Source: a virus (lineage: Duplodnaviria; Heunggongvirae; Uroviricota; Caudoviricetes). From it: DNA of 64,000 nucleotides. This document shows, in pieces, positions 1,372-64,000 of this stretch. The stretch's first letter is position 1. Each line of letters opens with the position of its first letter. The stretch is taken from the IMG/VR virus record IMGVR_UViG_2861084961_000001; one strand, 5' to 3'. The position numbers and the translations under genes were made by a program. Below the pieces are notes generated by a model that saw nothing but the letters and a program-made list of their open reading frames with translations, was not told the DNA's origin and ran no database searches.

Positions 1372-2139
1372 TTATGCCGCGCTAACACTATGTTCAGTCC
1401 TAACCACTCCAACCTTCACAAAAGGGCTACCGTAGCTTGGTGGCTTCTTGATTAATTTGCCTACATACAGTTTTCTAATATGCTCATCGGCTATTCTGCC
1501 AACAAATTCATAACGTTTTGTGTCGGGGCCAAGAGCTATATCCCTTGTAAAGTACTGCTGAGAACCGGCTTTGACCCAGCATTCAATCTGATAAACTTCC
1601 ATTATCAGCCCACCATATGTAGCGTAGGCATATTTGAGATTCTCGTCTCTTGGAACCTTTGCCCATACGCCACGCGTTGCTTCATATAATGCCAGAGCGG
1701 ACATTCCTGACTTGTAGGTGCTGTTTAGCAGGAAGGCAAGACCAGCGTGCTCAGGAGCAATTTCAGTTTCCTCTTGCAGCACTAAGTGATGGTAGGCGTC
1801 CAGTGATATTCTGCCCATCATGGAACCACTTCCTCGTACCTTATTCGTAAGCTCTCCGACCCCCATAAGGTCGATGCATGTCGCCTCAACAAGTTTGGCT
1901 GTGGTTTCATCCATACCATGACGAAGAATATCTATGCCTAATTTTTTATTAGCCAAAAGTTCTTTGATCCGCATGGATTTGGGAGAGTCATCGGGATACT
2001 TGATGTGATCGAGACAACGAGTCGATTTGCCTTTTCCTATGTAAAACGGTCTTTTCATCTTGTCTTCTGTATCATAGAGACAGTAAACATAGTATTTAGC
2101 CTTATCCAATGATCTCGCGTATACCGATAAATCGTCCAT
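1372..2139 (-). CDS. GIY-YIG domain protein (homing-endonuclease-like)
   Basis: N-terminal YVYCLYD...PFYIGKGKSTRCLDHIKY matches GIY-YIG nuclease motif; 255 aa; opposite strand to surrounding operons. Confidence 0.55.
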   Translation of the reverse strand: MDDLSVYARSLDKAKYYVYCLYDTEDKMKRPFYIGKGKSTRCLDHIKYPDDSPKSMRIKELLANKKLGIDILRHGMDETTAKLVEATCIDLMGVGELTNKVRGSGSMMGRISLDAYHHLVLQEETEIAPEHAGLAFLLNSTYKSGMSALALYEATRGVWAKVPRDENLKYAYATYGGLIMEVYQIECWVKAGSQQYFTRDIALGPDTKRYEFVGRIADEHIRKLYVGKLIKKPPSYGSPFVKVGVVRTEHSVSAA

Positions 2140-10111: not shown

Positions 10112-10186
10112 GATGGTGTAGCTCAGCGGTAGAGCAGTTGGCTGTTAACCAACTGGTCGGTGGTTCGAATCCACCCACCATCGCCA
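10112..10186 (+). tRNA. tRNA-Asn (anticodon GTT)
   Basis: Cloverleaf by eye: acceptor gatggtg/caccatc, anticodon loop ctGTTaa, T-loop ggttcgaat, CCA end. Confidence 0.8.
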
Positions 10187-10191
10187 ATTTA

Positions 10192-10278
10192 GGGGAGTTA
10201 GTCCGTAGAGGTAGCGGTGTAGACTGTAAATCTACTGTCATGGCGACTCGGGTGGTTCGACTCCATCACTCCCCACCA
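10192..10278 (+). tRNA. tRNA-Tyr (anticodon GTA), type II with long variable arm
   Basis: Acceptor ggggagt/actcccc, anticodon loop ctGTAaa, T-loop ggttcgact, CCA end. Confidence 0.75.
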
Positions 10279-10282
10279 AATT

Positions 10283-10358
10283 GCCGGTTTAGCTCAGTTG
10301 GTAGAGCGCCTGCCTTGTAAGCAGGATGTCAGCGGTTCGAGTCCGTTAACCGGCACCA
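10283..10358 (+). tRNA. tRNA-Thr (anticodon TGT)
   Basis: Acceptor gccggtt/aaccggc, D-arm agctcagttggtagagc, anticodon stem cctgc/gcagg with loop ctTGTaa, CCA end. Confidence 0.75.
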
Positions 10359-10582
10359 ATACAACGATAAGATCATTACGGTTAATCGTCGTTCATGTGC
10401 ACAATGACTGGTCGAAAGGTAGTGATCTTACCGTTGTGGTGGATTCGCAGACTGATGCGATAGCTTTCTTGGATGTTAGGGAAATGCGGCCGCAAATCTT
10501 CCCTTTCGCGAGCGGTGATCGTCCGTAGTCCTAATTGGCTGCACCGTATGCCGGAGATTCAGTACCGGCCACCACAACGGCC

Positions 10583-10669
10583 GGAGAGTAGGGAGCATGG
10601 TGCTCAAGCTGTCTTGAAAACCGCCCCATTGCGCAAGCGATGATGGTTCGATTCCATTACTCTCCGCCA
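10583..10669 (+). tRNA. Type II tRNA-like gene, anticodon TGA (Ser?), imperfect stems
   Basis: Acceptor ggagagt/actctcc, loop ctTGAaa, T-loop ggttcgatt, CCA; anticodon stem and variable arm pair poorly, may be non-canonical or pseudo. Confidence 0.5.
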
Positions 10670-52784: not shown

Positions 52785-54470
52785 ATGAATACAGCCCTTT
52801 CCATCATCGACGATGCCAGCTCAAACACGGCTATCGACTATCGTCAGGAAATGAATGTCATCCACGAAATCGTGGACGAGTGCGAGAAAGAGATCGCCTT
52901 CATGTATCAGGTACACGACTTCGTTTATGGCGACGAACGCCACAACATGATTAATCGCCTGCTGAGACTAAACCATCGACCAGATGAAGATCGCTCGCGT
53001 TTAAATCGAGGTTGGTTGGATAAAGTTGATCTGGAATGGGTGAAACAGAATATTTGGGCCGAGTACTGGAGGAAGGTCACGGACATGACTAACGTTTTGC
53101 TGATCATGCCAGCTTCCCGTCGAGATGAGTGGCGCGAGCAGTTTATAGAGGGCAAACAGGAAGTCATCAAAACTGACAGAACCGGCTACCAGATGAAGGT
53201 TAAAGAGTTCGTTGGTGTACCGGAGTTCAAAGCAGAAACGGTCATACCCACGATGCTTAATTTGCTGAATGACAGGCACAAATATCTCTCTGAGCGCGTG
53301 TATGGCTTGTTTAAGGCGCTGAGTCCTGCGCACAAGACAAATAAGACAAACGGTTTCAGCGAGCGTCTGATAATCGCTGACTGCATTTCTGATTTCTGGC
53401 GGGACAGCGTTAGCGTGAACTATCGCAAAGAGGACTACATCGACGATCTGCGTGTCTTGCTTCATTTCTTCGCGCACAAAGAATTTATTACCATCAACCG
53501 CACTGCTGAGGTGCTATCAGCTGCGTATCGGGCAAACGACTGCCAGACCGGTGACTGGATGAACGTCGATGGAAATCTGATGCGCGTGAAGATGTTCAAG
53601 AACGGCAACGTTCACTTTGAAATACATCCTGACGTGGCCTGGAAGTTGAATGAGGTGCTGGCTTACAGTATGCCTGCTGCAATCCCCGCGCCATGCCGAA
53701 CTGCGCCAAAAACACGGGCACCAAAGCAGTTCGGTTTAATCCAGAAGACGATCTCCGTGCCGGTTCGCACTGCGCTTCGTGACGGGCGATTGAGCAAAGA
53801 CAAAGGCGTATGGTACTTCTCTGATTCAGCTCTCCAGAAGTCGCAGGTGGAAGAGCTTGAGCGCACACTGAGCTTCATTGGCGGCGTGCAGGAGAAAAAG
53901 CACTGGCAGTTCCCGTATGACATCGGCCATACGCTAAATACGATTGTGGCTACCGGTTTAATACCGGATACAAAATCACACCAGTTCTACCCTACCCCAC
54001 GCTTGATTGCTGAGTACGTTGCCAGAGCCACTGAATTGAAGCCTGGTGAGAAGCTGCTTGAGCCTCACGCCGGACGTGGGGATCTTCTGGCCTATATTAA
54101 CGCCGATCTGGAAGATGTTACCTGCATAGAAATCGCACCTCTCTTCGCTGATATCCTGCGTGGAAAAGGGTATACGAACACGATTTGCTGCGACTTCATA
54201 AAGTGGTCTGAGGACAACGCAGGTTATCAGTTCGACAAAATCGTTATGAACCCGCCGTACTCGCTTGGTCGTCATAGGGAGCACACGATGGCTGCGCTGG
54301 GGCATCTGAAAGTCGGCGGGCGTCTTGTAGCAGTATTGCCGGGCACTGCGCCAATACTGGACTGGATGACGATGGATAATTACGTTTATGCCAGAGGGAA
54401 GTCGTTTACCAACGAGTTTGAAGACACAGGGATCACAGTCAGCGTATACGTTTTCAAACGCGTTAAATGA
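52785..54470 (+). CDS. Large protein with C-terminal N6-adenine DNA methyltransferase domain and ~400 aa N-terminal domain of unknown function
   Basis: FYPTP, LLEPHAGRGDLLAYI (SAM-binding) and VMNPPYS (catalytic) in C-terminal third; 561 aa intact ORF. Confidence 0.7.
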   Translation: MNTALSIIDDASSNTAIDYRQEMNVIHEIVDECEKEIAFMYQVHDFVYGDERHNMINRLLRLNHRPDEDRSRLNRGWLDKVDLEWVKQNIWAEYWRKVTDMTNVLLIMPASRRDEWREQFIEGKQEVIKTDRTGYQMKVKEFVGVPEFKAETVIPTMLNLLNDRHKYLSERVYGLFKALSPAHKTNKTNGFSERLIIADCISDFWRDSVSVNYRKEDYIDDLRVLLHFFAHKEFITINRTAEVLSAAYRANDCQTGDWMNVDGNLMRVKMFKNGNVHFEIHPDVAWKLNEVLAYSMPAAIPAPCRTAPKTRAPKQFGLIQKTISVPVRTALRDGRLSKDKGVWYFSDSALQKSQVEELERTLSFIGGVQEKKHWQFPYDIGHTLNTIVATGLIPDTKSHQFYPTPRLIAEYVARATELKPGEKLLEPHAGRGDLLAYINADLEDVTCIEIAPLFADILRGKGYTNTICCDFIKWSEDNAGYQFDKIVMNPPYSLGRHREHTMAALGHLKVGGRLVAVLPGTAPILDWMTMDNYVYARGKSFTNEFEDTGITVSVYVFKRVK

Positions 54471-54531: not shown

Positions 54532-55236
54532 ATGAGCAACCTCCAGTTAGAGCATTTTAACGTCACAGGCCATTCCGATTTTCCTTTCAAGTTTACATTG
54601 AAAGGTTATGCGGAGGATGCGGTAGGCCAGATCATTATTGATAAAGGTATCGTTAAGTTTGAGGGGAATTTTGATGAATCCGCGAAAACATTCATAGACT
54701 TCGTTGCCAAACGTTGGAGCGAGCAATGGAAAGACCTGGAAAAGCGCGCCAATGAGTTTGATCGGTTCATGGATGCAATGGATACAGCAAAAGAGGCTCT
54801 GGCTGCCGGGACTCCGTTAGATCTGGAGTCACTTTTCAACGGCACAATGGCCTCTGCGATGTTCGCCACCATGTTCGCGGGTGAGTTCGTCCGCAGCGGT
54901 GCCAAAAACTACCTTGAGCTGGATTACAACGTCCCTGAAATTGGCGATTTCGTCGTTACCATCCAACGAAAAGAAGGTAAGACGCCAGGTGAACGCGTCG
55001 CAGAACTTGAGGCCGTTGTGGAGCAGCGTAACGGCGAGTGCGTTCGTTTGATCAACGAACGTAATGCTCTTCGTGAAGAAAAAATATGCACAGGTAGCAA
55101 TACACGTAATGCAGCGGATATCTACTTCCAGTTAGTTGAGGAATGCCAGATTCCACCAGGTGGCTCTCTTGTCGATTACGTCAGACATTTAATGGCGGAA
55201 GTTAACTCCAGCCATAAAGATGGTGAGGTGCGCTGA
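54532..55236 (+). CDS. Hypothetical protein (234 aa)
   Basis: Conserved start context AGAAAAACACATG. Confidence 0.45.
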   Translation: MSNLQLEHFNVTGHSDFPFKFTLKGYAEDAVGQIIIDKGIVKFEGNFDESAKTFIDFVAKRWSEQWKDLEKRANEFDRFMDAMDTAKEALAAGTPLDLESLFNGTMASAMFATMFAGEFVRSGAKNYLELDYNVPEIGDFVVTIQRKEGKTPGERVAELEAVVEQRNGECVRLINERNALREEKICTGSNTRNAADIYFQLVEECQIPPGGSLVDYVRHLMAEVNSSHKDGEVR

Positions 55237-55616: not shown

Positions 55617-55735
55617 GCGCTACAAATCCTTCTGCATGAATAAATAAAGGCCATAACTTATGGCCTTAAATAAATTGTTTTCTACCTTTTCTTATTTGTG
55701 AAAATAACCACAACTAGAAAACAACGGAGTTAAGA

Positions 55736-56377
55736 ATGTCTAGTATTTCCGAAGCTCATATGTTCGCCGCTGGCGCTCATGGTGGCGTTGGTCAGAAAAG
55801 AAAATATACCGGCGAAGACTACATCAACCACCCGGTTGCTGTACGAGAGATTGTTGCATTGCATGACGGAACCGTGGATATGCAAATCGCGGCGCTTCTG
55901 CATGATGTGGTCGAAGACACCCATGTAACCATAGAGATGGTTCGTGATCACTTCGGTGAGCGCGTAGCTGAAATGGTTCAGGCTCTGACCAACATTGCAA
56001 GGCCAGAAGACGGCAATCGAATACAGCGTTTCATCATCAATGTCCGGGAGCTGGAGCAAAATCTCGACATGCAGACGCGCATGATCAAGCTGGCTGACCT
56101 GCTCGACAATACCTCTTCTATCGTGAGTCGCGATCCTGAGTTTTCAGCTATCTACCTTGCAGAGAAAGAGCTGATGCTGGACGTACTTTTTAACGGGAAG
56201 GAGATTGGTGCCAACGCTGATGTTGTCGAGTACATGGAGAGGATAGGTATAGAACACCCGTTGCTATTAAGCGCAATGGCGAAAGTCACTGAAGGTATTG
56301 CGCTTCTGAAACCGGAACACATCAAACGTTATGAAAAACACAAATCGCTGATCTGGAGCGCGTGGGAGGCTGCATGA
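55736..56377 (+). CDS. HD-domain hydrolase resembling RelA/SpoT-type (p)ppGpp hydrolase (small alarmone hydrolase candidate)
   Basis: INHPVAVREIV...AALLHDVVEDT HD motif and downstream ADLLDN; ~213 aa, no synthetase domain. Confidence 0.65.
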   Translation: MSSISEAHMFAAGAHGGVGQKRKYTGEDYINHPVAVREIVALHDGTVDMQIAALLHDVVEDTHVTIEMVRDHFGERVAEMVQALTNIARPEDGNRIQRFIINVRELEQNLDMQTRMIKLADLLDNTSSIVSRDPEFSAIYLAEKELMLDVLFNGKEIGANADVVEYMERIGIEHPLLLSAMAKVTEGIALLKPEHIKRYEKHKSLIWSAWEAA

Positions 56378-56520
56378 AGGTAGAAAAAATAGATGTTCTT
56401 TCCTTTGTGCTGACGGATCTGGAACGTCTCGATCCGGTTCGAGTGATGATTGAAAACTACGAACCTGGTAAGGGAAGAATCACCATCACCTGCTACGGAA
56501 AAGCGTGGACTGCGGCTTAG
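56374..56520 (+). CDS. Small hypothetical protein (48 aa)
   Basis: ATGA start-stop overlap with upstream gene. Confidence 0.3.
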   Translation: MKVEKIDVLSFVLTDLERLDPVRVMIENYEPGKGRITITCYGKAWTAA

Positions 56521-56526
56521 TTTGCT

Positions 56527-56916
56527 ATGGGCGGTGATGATGTGCAGACGTTCATCAAGCGAGTTAGCAACGACTATCTAATCGACAATTTCGACCCTCA
56601 ACTGCTAAGCACGGTCGACGATGACAACGATGCAAATCTGCTTTTCGTGAAGTCAGAAATCATAAAGTTACGAAGAGAGAGAGAAATCGACGCCGTACTA
56701 GCTCGTGAAATGTGGGACGAGGCGGAAAACGCCGATGACGTAAAAGAAAGCTGCTGTTGTTTCGGCGTCGGTAACAAACTGTTGAATCTCTTTGGTGATG
56801 ATCCGTGGTATGCCGACTGGCCAACTGTACCAAACCCGAAATACCAGTATCTGGAACGCATTGTGAACGCGGTACGTGAAGGGCTGAAAGAGTTAGACAA
56901 GTTAGAGGCATCGTAA
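56527..56916 (+). CDS. Hypothetical protein (129 aa)
   Basis: ORF in tightly coupled operon. Confidence 0.4.
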   Translation: MGGDDVQTFIKRVSNDYLIDNFDPQLLSTVDDDNDANLLFVKSEIIKLRREREIDAVLAREMWDEAENADDVKESCCCFGVGNKLLNLFGDDPWYADWPTVPNPKYQYLERIVNAVREGLKELDKLEAS

Positions 56917-57371: not shown

Positions 57372-57841
57372 GTGAGATTAACTACCTGGCGTTACGTGAG
57401 CGTTATTCACCAAAACCAGCGCCTAGATGCTCTGTTTGTGGCGAGGAAATGTCAATACAGCGCATATCTGGAGCACATGTCGTTTATGCCTGCTCCGGTG
57501 AGGGTGATGACGGATATTTTAAGATAGGACGTACTTTTGCAGACGAACATTATGAAAAATCACGCGTAACAGTAGTTGATGATAGTGATCCCGATGTGAT
57601 TGCACTGCTGGAAGAACTGGATAAAAGACGACATTACATCGGACGTCTTGAGCAGGAGAACGTAGAGATGGCCCTAACGCTTGAGAAGCTGCGTGTTGAG
57701 ATGAAGGCAGCCAAATCAAAACTCAACGAGCAGCGTGAGTATTACGAAGGTGTTATCTCGGATGGAAGCAAGCGCATAGCCGCTCTTCTTTGCAAGGACA
57801 ATCTTGTCAGCACCACGAACATTGAAGGTGAAAGAAGATGA
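57368..57841 (+). CDS. Hypothetical protein with CxxC pair and coiled-coil (157 aa)
   Basis: ORF; start overlaps upstream stop. Confidence 0.4.
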
Positions 57842-58161
57842 CCACATCGCATTCTGCTATTACCCAGGAAAAAGCCTTCAACATACTCGAACGACTAGAG
57901 ACGCTCGCTACGGAGGAGGAGATATCCCTGGAGAAACTGGTTGAGTTCAGCCGTGTGATATTGCGTCGCAAGAACGATATGGAGCGGCTGACATCTGGCG
58001 CTCCATCCTTATCAGCCAGGCGAACACTTTGTTGCAGCTTCTGCAACAAATCCCAGTACGCCGTCAAAAAGTTAATTGCTGGGGACGCCGTTTTCATCTG
58101 CGACGAGTGTGTGGATGTGTGCAACAGAATTATCCGGGGAGAGAAAGAGGGATCAGCATGA
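57838..58161 (+). CDS. ClpX N-terminal zinc-binding-domain-like protein (stand-alone, 107 aa)
   Basis: [38 protein letters not shown] closely parallels E. coli ClpX ZBD ([37 protein letters not shown]); no AAA+ module follows. Confidence 0.65.
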
Positions 58162-61840: not shown

Positions 61841-62941
61841 TCACACTGCGCGGAATGCGATTTCGCCAGGTATTACTTCACCTTGCCAATACATTTGGGC
61901 AGCAACGCGATCTGCGAGGTCACGATAAATAGCCGTAAATTCGCTATCTGGACGACTAATAACGGTTGGTGTTCCGTTATCCAGATCCTCACGAAGAGAG
62001 ATATGAAGTGGCATTTGGCCTAACAACTGCGTGTTGTATTTCTCGGCCAGTTTCTGTGCGCCACCGGTGCCAAAAATTGGCTCGTGATGACCGCAGTTAC
62101 TGCAAATATGCACACTCATGTTTTCGACGATACCTAGTACCGGCACTTCGACTTTTTCGAACATCACAATGCCTTTCTTCGCATCGATCAGCGCGATGTC
62201 TTGCGGCGTAGTTACCACAACCGCACCAGTTACAGGAATGTTCTGCGCCAGCGTCAATTGAATATCACCAGTGCCCGGCGGCATATCGAGAACGAGATAG
62301 TCCAGATCAGGCCACAGTGTTTCCTGCAACATCTGCATCAGCGCCTTGCTGGCCATCGGTCCACGCCACACCATTGCATTGTCGTCGGTGACCAGATAAC
62401 CAATAGAGTTGGTTGCCAGGCCATGAGACATGATAGGTGCCATGTGAGTACCGTCCGGTGAGGTTGGACGTTGGTTTTCCGCACCCAGCATGGTTGGAAT
62501 TGATGGACCGTAGATATCGGCATCCAAAATACCAACTTTCGCACCTTCAGCAGCCAACGCCAGTGCCAAGTTTACTGCTGTGGACGATTTGCCTACACCG
62601 CCCTTGCCTGAGCTGACGGCGATGATGTTCTTAACGCCATTAATGCCTGGTTGGTTTTTGACGCGCTTAAGCGTGGCAATGTTGTACGACAGCTTCCAGT
62701 CGATAGCCTTTGCGCCAGTGATACGGAGCAGATCACCACTACATTGCTCTTTCAGGTCTTCAAAAGGCTTATTCCACACGAAAGGCATGATTAGTTCGAC
62801 ATGCAGTGTGTCATCCATCAACGCAACATGGTGTAACGCTTTAAGCGTAGTCAGGTTGTGCTTCAGGGTTGGGTGCTGAAAATTAGCCAGCGTACCGGCT
62901 ACCATTGCTCTCAGGGCATCCGGCGATTTGGACTCGCTCAT
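61841..62941 (-). CDS. apbC: Fe-S cluster carrier ATPase ApbC/Mrp
   Basis: 366 aa; P-loop GKGGVGKS, CxxC; chromosomal gene divergent from metG as in E. coli. Confidence 0.9.
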   Translation of the reverse strand: MSESKSPDALRAMVAGTLANFQHPTLKHNLTTLKALHHVALMDDTLHVELIMPFVWNKPFEDLKEQCSGDLLRITGAKAIDWKLSYNIATLKRVKNQPGINGVKNIIAVSSGKGGVGKSSTAVNLALALAAEGAKVGILDADIYGPSIPTMLGAENQRPTSPDGTHMAPIMSHGLATNSIGYLVTDDNAMVWRGPMASKALMQMLQETLWPDLDYLVLDMPPGTGDIQLTLAQNIPVTGAVVVTTPQDIALIDAKKGIVMFEKVEVPVLGIVENMSVHICSNCGHHEPIFGTGGAQKLAEKYNTQLLGQMPLHISLREDLDNGTPTVISRPDSEFTAIYRDLADRVAAQMYWQGEVIPGEIAFRAV

Positions 62942-63098: not shown

Positions 63099-64000
63099 AT
63101 GACCCAAGTCGCGAAGAAAATTCTGGTGACGTGCGCGCTGCCGTACGCTAACGGCTCAATCCACCTCGGCCATATGCTGGAGCACATCCAGGCTGATGTC
63201 TGGGTTCGTTACCAGCGAATGCGCGGCCACGAGGTTAATTTCATCTGTGCCGACGATGCCCACGGTACGCCGATCATGCTGAAAGCACAGCAGCTTGGTA
63301 TCACACCGGAACAGATGATTGGCGAAATGAGCCAGGAACACCAGACTGATTTCGCAGGCTTTAACATCAGCTATGACAACTATCACTCGACGCACAGCGA
63401 AGAGAACCGCCAGCTGTCTGAGCTTATCTATACTCGCCTGAAAGAGAACGGTTTTATTAAAAACCGCACTATCTCTCAGTTGTACGACCCGGAAAAAGGC
63501 ATGTTCCTGCCGGATCGTTTTGTGAAAGGCACCTGTCCGAAATGTAAAGCGCCAGATCAATACGGCGATAACTGTGAAGTTTGCGGCGCGACCTACAGCC
63601 CGACTGAACTGATTGAGCCGAAATCGGTAGTTTCTGGCGCTACGCCGGTAATGCGTGATTCTGAACACTTCTTCTTTGATCTGCCCTCTTTCAGCGAAAT
63701 GTTGCAGGCATGGACCCGCAGCGGTGCGTTGCAGGAGCAGGTGGCAAACAAAATGCAGGAGTGGTTTGAATCTGGTCTGCAACAGTGGGATATCTCCCGC
63801 GACGCACCTTACTTCGGTTTTGAAATTCCGAACGCGCCGGGTAAATATTTCTACGTCTGGCTGGACGCACCGATTGGCTACATGGGTTCCTTCAAGAATC
63901 TGTGCGACAAGCGCGGCGACACTACCAGCTTCGATGAATACTGGAAGAAAGACTCCACCGCCGAGCTGTACCACTTCATCGGTAAAGATATCGTTTACTT
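63099..64000 (+). CDS. metG: Methionyl-tRNA synthetase (5' portion, continues beyond window)
   Basis: [43 protein letters not shown] with HLGH motif and zinc knuckles CPKC...CEVC; essentially identical to E. coli MetG as recalled. Confidence 0.95.

Follow-up and report, generated by a model that had tools for sequence, protein, structure and literature searches.

A stand-alone RelA/SpoT-type hydrolase on an SSU5-like phage-plasmid: an accessory orphan gene that probably reverses damage by toxic small alarmone synthetases

Background

In a 64,000-nucleotide stretch of viral DNA (the window; IMG/VR record IMGVR_UViG_2861084961_000001, Caudoviricetes) lies a short gene whose product resembles the hydrolase domain of RelA/SpoT homologs (RSH). 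The locus raises the question of what such a small alarmone hydrolase (SAH) removes, and whether it serves the infecting element, the host that carries it or a partner gene beside it. An initial annotation, made from the raw sequence, had proposed a stand-alone alarmone hydrolase on a phage-plasmid, which could blunt the host stringent response or counter toxic small alarmone synthetases (toxSAS). The explanation that we favour, and hold to be likely, is that the protein is a single-domain RSH hydrolase which reverses toxSAS damage and is encoded by an accessory orphan gene, with counter-defence as its likeliest purpose; within this explanation the activity of the window allele, its choice of substrate and its native counter-defence role are parts that we infer, by analogy with relatives.

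The locus and its reading frame

The following features of the locus are used below (positions are those of the window).

52785-54470, plus strand: gene for a 561-aa DUF4942 / N6-adenine DNA methyltransferase-like protein (Pfam DUF4942, E 1.7e-20; phrog_6263, DNA methyltransferase)
55647-55667, no strand assigned: perfect 9-bp hairpin AAGGCCATA-ACT-TATGGCCTT, found in the sequence, with a terminator-like match on the minus strand
55726-55729, plus strand: ribosome-binding site GGAG of the SAH gene, 6 nt 5' of the ATG, read directly from the sequence
55736-56377, plus strand: SAH gene, 213 aa (ORF; HD_4; orthologue of SSU5 gp099, PaSpo-SSU5)
56374-56916, plus strand: downstream ORF, 180 aa when intact (phrog_3451, function not assigned), with an ATG that overlaps the SAH stop (ATGA)

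The SAH reading frame runs on the plus strand from an ATG at 55736 to a TGA at 56375-56377 and encodes, as first described, a protein with the motifs of an HD hydrolase, namely INHP (H32), AALLHDVVEDT (H56, D57, E60 and D61) and KLADLLDN (D121 and N125). The hairpin at 55647-55667 sits within the 119-nt gap that separates the upstream gene from the SAH gene. It is possibly a weak or bidirectional terminator, to judge from its sequence, and the SAH gene may therefore have some transcriptional autonomy. No convincing plus-strand sigma-70 promoter was found in the 119-nt gap 5' of the SAH gene, and the numbers of promoter-like and terminator-like matches at the locus did not exceed the shuffled expectation.

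Domain content, catalytic residues and fold

Residues 8-135 of the protein match the Pfam model HD_4 (RelA/SpoT-type hydrolase) with an E-value of 1.2e-18 and a score of 67.7 bits against a gathering cut-off of 27.2 bits, in a search of the kind that the initial annotation had proposed. The generic HD model gives a far weaker match (E 5e-06), and the Pfam scan of the protein returned no significant domain besides HD_4 and HD. The sole match to the NCBIfam model TIGR00691 (spoT_relA) pairs residues 7-130 with model positions 1-123 of 687, and because it is confined to the N-terminal hydrolase part of the model, the protein lacks a synthetase domain, in agreement with the first description. In PHROGs the protein falls into phrog_990 ('metal-dependent phosphohydrolase', E 8e-54), and 1544 homologues were collected at E <= 1e-5.

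The significant sequence matches in the PDB (E <= 4.4e-4) are RSH hydrolases without exception, comprising A. baumannii SpoT, human and fly MESH1, Rel of several bacteria, the SAHs of Pseudomonas, Corynebacterium and Leptospira, and the (p)ppApp hydrolase Aph1. The best of them are the hydrolase domains of long RSH enzymes (A. baumannii SpoT, 7qpr/7qps, and T. thermophilus Rel, 6s2t). The alignment with SpoT covers residues 10-196, so that the whole protein corresponds to one complete hydrolase domain; because the alignment reaches residue 196, the C-terminal third is the remainder of that domain and not an added module. Unlike the long RSH enzymes, the window SAH has no synthetase, TGS or ACT domain, and it would therefore be free of their ribosome- or domain-coupled regulation.

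An alignment of 27 homologues with identities down to 42% shows no variation at R22, H32, H56, E60, D61, K118, D121 or N125, and almost none at D57 or K23. HMMER alignments place H32, H56, D57 and D121 on the H...HD...D metal tetrad of MESH1 (3nr1) and SpoT, the RSH-specific ED pair (E60-D61) on the catalytic Glu-Asp pair of the same two enzymes, and R22-K23 and N125 on their substrate-binding Arg/Lys and Asn. An AlphaFold2 model built with the 27-homologue alignment as input is all-helical (pLDDT 96.5, pTM 0.92). Compared with the PDB by Foldseek, this model finds only RSH hydrolase domains among its best 50 matches (MESH1, bacterial SAHs and Rel/SpoT), with MESH1 3nr1 at the top (TM 0.82, target-normalised). 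The profile match, the conserved catalytic residues and the agreement between model and structure search bear out the reading as a stand-alone RelA/SpoT-type hydrolase, and the window protein is almost certainly an RSH-type SAH.

The MESH1 structures of human and Drosophila (3nr1, 5vxa, 3nqw), at 26-28% identity, have metal-binding and catalytic residues in common with the window SAH, including the YINHP motif. The window SAH is about 35 residues longer than MESH1 and differs from it by an insert (about residues 153-175) and an additional C-terminal helix, which are specific to the phage-plasmid clade. MESH1 detoxifies FaRel2 and repairs pyrophosphorylated tRNA, and the human enzyme is also an NADPH phosphatase. 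Another instructive relative is ATfaRel of Cellulomonas marina (PbcSpo subfamily), the SAH-type type IV antitoxin of the toxSAS FaRel and, like the window protein, a single-domain RSH hydrolase. ATfaRel neutralises all tested toxSAS, reversing their chemistry rather than binding the toxin (PMC7229694). It shares an operon with its toxin, whereas the window SAH has no toxin partner, and according to Jimmy et al. the two fall into separate SAH subfamilies.

Some homologues depart from the common pattern. An E. coli homologue of 231 aa (P0009, 63% identical) has the catalytic HD replaced by HG (LLHGVIEDT) and a different, longer C-terminus, and is possibly an inactivated or repurposed SAH copy. 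Four partial homologues (P0010 and P0012-P0014) align with about 75% of the query at 70-85% identity and have no HD_4 match; one of them carries the annotation AAA family ATPase (PF13521), and they may represent chimeric or rearranged versions of the gene.

Relationship to the SSU5 protein

The closest studied protein is PaSpo-SSU5 of Salmonella phage SSU5 (SSU5_099, gp099, YP_006906731), which is likewise 213 aa long and aligns with the window SAH without gaps over 213/213 positions at 87% identity. The catalytic residues are identical, and 19 of the 28 substitutions that separate the two proteins lie in the final 65 residues. Between the window gene and its SSU5 orthologue, dN/dS amounts to 0.19 for the whole gene and 0.11 for the catalytic core; the gene is under purifying selection, and the window allele seems functional. 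The two genes also hold an equal position, 3' of the DUF4942 methyltransferase gene and small 'ea'-like genes and 5' of a phrog_3451-type ORF. The carriers differ in host (E. coli for the window element, Salmonella for SSU5), in one small gene that SSU5 has in addition between the 234-aa gene and the SAH gene, and in the downstream ORF, which is broken by a stop codon in the window and not in SSU5.

GenBank lists the product of the SSU5 gene as a putative guanosine polyphosphate pyrophosphohydrolase. It was cloned by Jimmy et al. 2020 (PMC7229694), who place this stand-alone, phage-encoded SAH in the PaSpo subfamily, a name that stands for Proteobacteria/Acidobacteria and not for P. aeruginosa. 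The putative PaSpo membership of the window protein is taken from its 87% identity to this protein; MESH1 and SpoT match it better (E about 1e-13) than the P. aeruginosa SAH does (6yvc, E 1.4e-4). PaSpo-SSU5 neutralised all five of the validated toxSAS against which it was tested (CapRel, PhRel, PhRel2, FaRel and FaRel2), and the authors proposed in their Discussion that incoming phages may bypass alarmone-mediated defence by means of encoded alarmone hydrolases (PMC7229694). The countering of toxic small alarmone synthetases, which the initial annotation had raised as a possibility, is thus on record for an 87%-identical protein, and by this analogy the window allele very likely neutralises toxSAS as its orthologue does.

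The substrates call for a wider view than the one taken at first. Kurata et al. [quoted passage not shown] Leaky expression of PaSpo-SSU5 suffices against FaRel2, and the protein is stated to remove the tRNA modification. The hydrolase role assigned in the initial annotation is upheld, but its restriction to nucleotide alarmones is too narrow, since pyrophosphorylated tRNA 3'-CCA is the relevant target for four of the five toxins. A helper plasmid with PaSpo-SSU5 has enabled the overproduction of CapRel-SJ46, and the protein is a routine detoxifier when such toxins are expressed. Neutralisation on overexpression is what has been reported for the SSU5 protein; the literature searched held no in vitro substrate profile or ppGpp hydrolysis data for it, nor any report of a phage-encoded SAH that lets a phage escape toxSAS defence in a real infection. 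The SAH family, its occurrence on SSU5, the neutralisation of toxSAS and the counter-defence idea are therefore already known, having been published in 2020.

The carrier element and the distribution of the gene

The 2.5 kb around the SAH gene match 353 plasmid records, as well as phage SSU5. Almost all of these records are non-mobilisable plasmids of about 110 kb from Escherichia, Enterobacter, Salmonella and Citrobacter. One of them, pEC881_2, is 98% identical to the window and covers 92% of it. Because it encodes tail, capsid, portal and terminase proteins together with RepB and ParB, pEC881_2 is an SSU5/pHCM2-type phage-plasmid, and so is the window; its early description as a phage-plasmid proved correct on the strength of the plasmid matches, SSU5 and the gene content of pEC881_2.

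The SAH gene itself is present in 143 plasmid records, compared with 353 for its neighbourhood. In phages PhiR41_1 and Cyrano an Eae-like gene takes the place of both the SAH gene and the downstream ORF. Among 5426 complete E. coli genomes, 44 carry the gene (36 of them with at least 80% of its length), invariably on a plasmid, and it also occurs on plasmids of Salmonella, Enterobacter and Citrobacter. The gene is accessory and dispensable, most SSU5-like elements being without it. CapRel systems occur in Salmonella and E. coli prophages, in Enterobacter and in Klebsiella, and targets for the SAH are thus present in the host range of SSU5-like elements.

Several other genes of the element deserve mention in their own right. 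Four tRNA genes (Asn-GTT, Tyr-GTA, Thr-TGT and Ser-TGA) are clustered at 10112-10669. The toxin FaRel2 acts on tRNA-Thr and tRNA-Gly, and defences that attack tRNA can be circumvented by phage tRNAs; the cluster may be a second feature of the element directed against tRNA damage. The methionyl-tRNA synthetase gene metG (63099-64000, plus strand), which continues past the end of the window, adjoins the iron-sulfur carrier gene apbC (61841-62941, minus strand), and the two are unusual cargo for a phage-plasmid. An insert that is absent from pEC881_2 (1372-2139, minus strand) codes for a protein of 254 aa in which a LEM-3-like GIY-YIG nuclease domain is recognised (E 5.5e-07), and is probably a gene of the homing-endonuclease type. 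Four genes 3' of the SAH gene, a 107-aa protein (57838-58161, plus strand) is made up almost entirely of a ClpX-type C4 zinc finger (Pfam E 1.2e-15) and could interfere with or mimic the binding of host ClpX adaptors.

Neighbouring genes

Small 'ea'-like genes make up the variable early region in which the SAH gene is located. The DUF4942 methyltransferase gene recurs beside the SAH gene in Klebsiella-type and other divergent phage-plasmid lineages, where the gene order differs, and is a candidate association that we treat as context only. In one divergent SSU5-like lineage (L010, Logan SRR31304528, 110.6 kb), whose SAH is 40% identical to that of the window, a Tad2-like anti-Thoeris gene (1563-1877; Pfam E 2.6e-08) is found approximately 2 kb upstream of the SAH gene, and genes for a TerB-like protein and a DUF4942 methyltransferase are also near. 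Such surroundings would fit an anti-defence neighbourhood, as circumstantial evidence.

On either side, the SAH gene is flanked by sequences related to phrog_3451, a family of 287 aa. The upstream gene for a 234-aa protein (54532-55236) matches N-terminal positions 11-102, and the downstream ORF (56374-56916) matches C-terminal positions 105-282. Since the flanking genes match its two parts, these halves form one gene in some phages, and the SAH block possibly occupies a junction that is prone to recombination. The downstream ORF has an in-frame TAG at 56518-56520, where both pEC881_2 and SSU5 have TGG (Trp); this divides the 180-aa protein into 48 and 129 aa and could reflect a pseudogene, a sequencing error or an amber mutation.

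No gene with a RelA_SpoT synthetase domain was found by Pfam among the neighbours of the SAH gene, no synthetase-domain protein occurs in the full annotation of pEC881_2, and a Pfam scan of the window-specific ORFs relative to pEC881_2 revealed no such domain. The SAH gene is thus an orphan, with no synthetase toxin found on the element.

Proposed mechanism and native role

By reference to solved relatives, a Mn2+ ion would be held by H32, H56, D57 and D121, water would be activated by the E60-D61 pair, and the substrate would be positioned by R22/K23 and N125, so that the enzyme would cleave a pyrophosphate esterified to the 3'-OH of ribose. The genetics of the orthologue lead us to expect (p)ppApp, (p)ppGpp and the 3'-pyrophosphorylated CCA end of tRNA as substrates. 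The damage done by toxSAS would be undone by removal of the pyrophosphate, and binding of the toxin would not be needed.

The likeliest native use of such an enzyme would be to shield an infection by the element, or its lysogen, from toxSAS abortive-infection systems such as CapRel, and CapRel-type systems do occur in prophages of the Enterobacteriaceae that host SSU5-like elements. A counter-defence role would explain the patchy, accessory distribution of the gene in a variable early region, which in relatives includes a Tad2-like gene. That counter-defence is the native role has nearly an even chance in our estimation. The more specific proposal, an early, broad-spectrum counter-defence gene that protects an SSU5-type infection or lysogen against CapRel-type systems by repair of tRNA 3' ends, is tentative and falls a little short of even. 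Two alternatives are live, control of host ppGpp and a shielding of the lysogen against (p)ppApp toxins, and neither excludes counter-defence.

Alternative explanations

It is possible that the SAH acts mainly by lowering host (p)ppGpp, whereby transcription and translation would continue in a starving or stressed host and serve lytic growth, or plasmid replication or the choice between lysis and lysogeny would be tuned. The closest relatives in sequence and structure do include the true ppGpp hydrolases SpoT, Rel and MESH1, the many replication and nucleotide-metabolism genes of the element (nrdAB, thyA, dfr, dnaE) are consistent with a productive-host strategy, and Jimmy et al. note an accumulation of alarmones linked to phage infection (PMC7229694). 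However, E. coli already possesses SpoT, the literature searched contained no assay of the SSU5 protein on ppGpp, and the gene, because it is missing from most related elements, is not needed for their basic life cycle. Modulation of the stringent response is compatible with toxSAS reversal, and as the main function we consider it unlikely.

Considerably less probable is a role in immunity by lysogenic conversion, in which the SAH would mainly help the carrier bacterium by degrading (p)ppApp produced by the toxins of competitors, such as Tas1-like type VI effectors or secreted alarmone synthetases. The element is kept long-term as a plasmid and the orthologue neutralises the (pp)pApp-producing FaRel (PMC7229694); toxins with (p)ppApp synthetase activity are known in secretion systems and among polymorphic toxins, according to PMC12691689 and PMC12226406. 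Nevertheless, the gene is placed among early, lytic-type 'ea'-like genes, and the dedicated (p)ppApp hydrolases (Aph1, 7smg) stand further away from its product (E 7e-07).

The ATGA overlap between the SAH stop and the start of the downstream ORF, by which the two are coupled in translation, resembles the layout of a toxin-antitoxin pair, PhiR41_1 and Cyrano lack both genes together, and ATfaRel provides a precedent for an SAH antitoxin (PMC7229694), so that the SAH could be thought of as a type IV antitoxin paired with the downstream ORF or with another gene of the element as toxin. The adjacent RelA_SpoT toxin that characterises a toxSAS operon is missing here, and no such synthetase was found elsewhere on the element. 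The downstream ORF was rejected as partner toxin: its product has neither a synthetase nor any other Pfam domain, and it is interrupted by the TAG in the window while the SAH gene is intact. Nor is it kept beside divergent SAH genes, where the ORF 3' of the SAH gene is non-homologous, or absent in the Klebsiella-type lineage. The antitoxin reading is largely refuted and very improbable.

A place in an unrelated HD phosphohydrolase family (dNTPase or nuclease), or a metabolic role as a MESH1-like NADPH phosphatase, is less probable still: the generic HD model does match and human MESH1, the best structural match, has the latter activity, but the HD_4 score stands well above that of generic HD, conservation extends to the RSH-specific ED pair and to the R/K and N motifs, all of the best 50 structural matches are RSH hydrolases and the toxSAS neutralisation by the orthologue is a direct functional result (PMC7229694), and we therefore reject the unrelated family, which the initial annotation had named as the outcome that would overturn it.

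Significance

The discovery value of this locus is small, the SSU5 protein having been published in 2020 and being now a standard laboratory helper. What is added here is that the SAH gene of the window is an orphan, accessory and under purifying selection, in a variable early region by a DUF4942 methyltransferase gene. The case also illustrates that enzymes of this kind can be recognised correctly from raw sequence at a first reading. For the biology of the family, SSU5-like elements that bear an SAH gene offer a convenient natural system in which to ask whether a phage-borne alarmone hydrolase can defeat CapRel-type immunity during infection.
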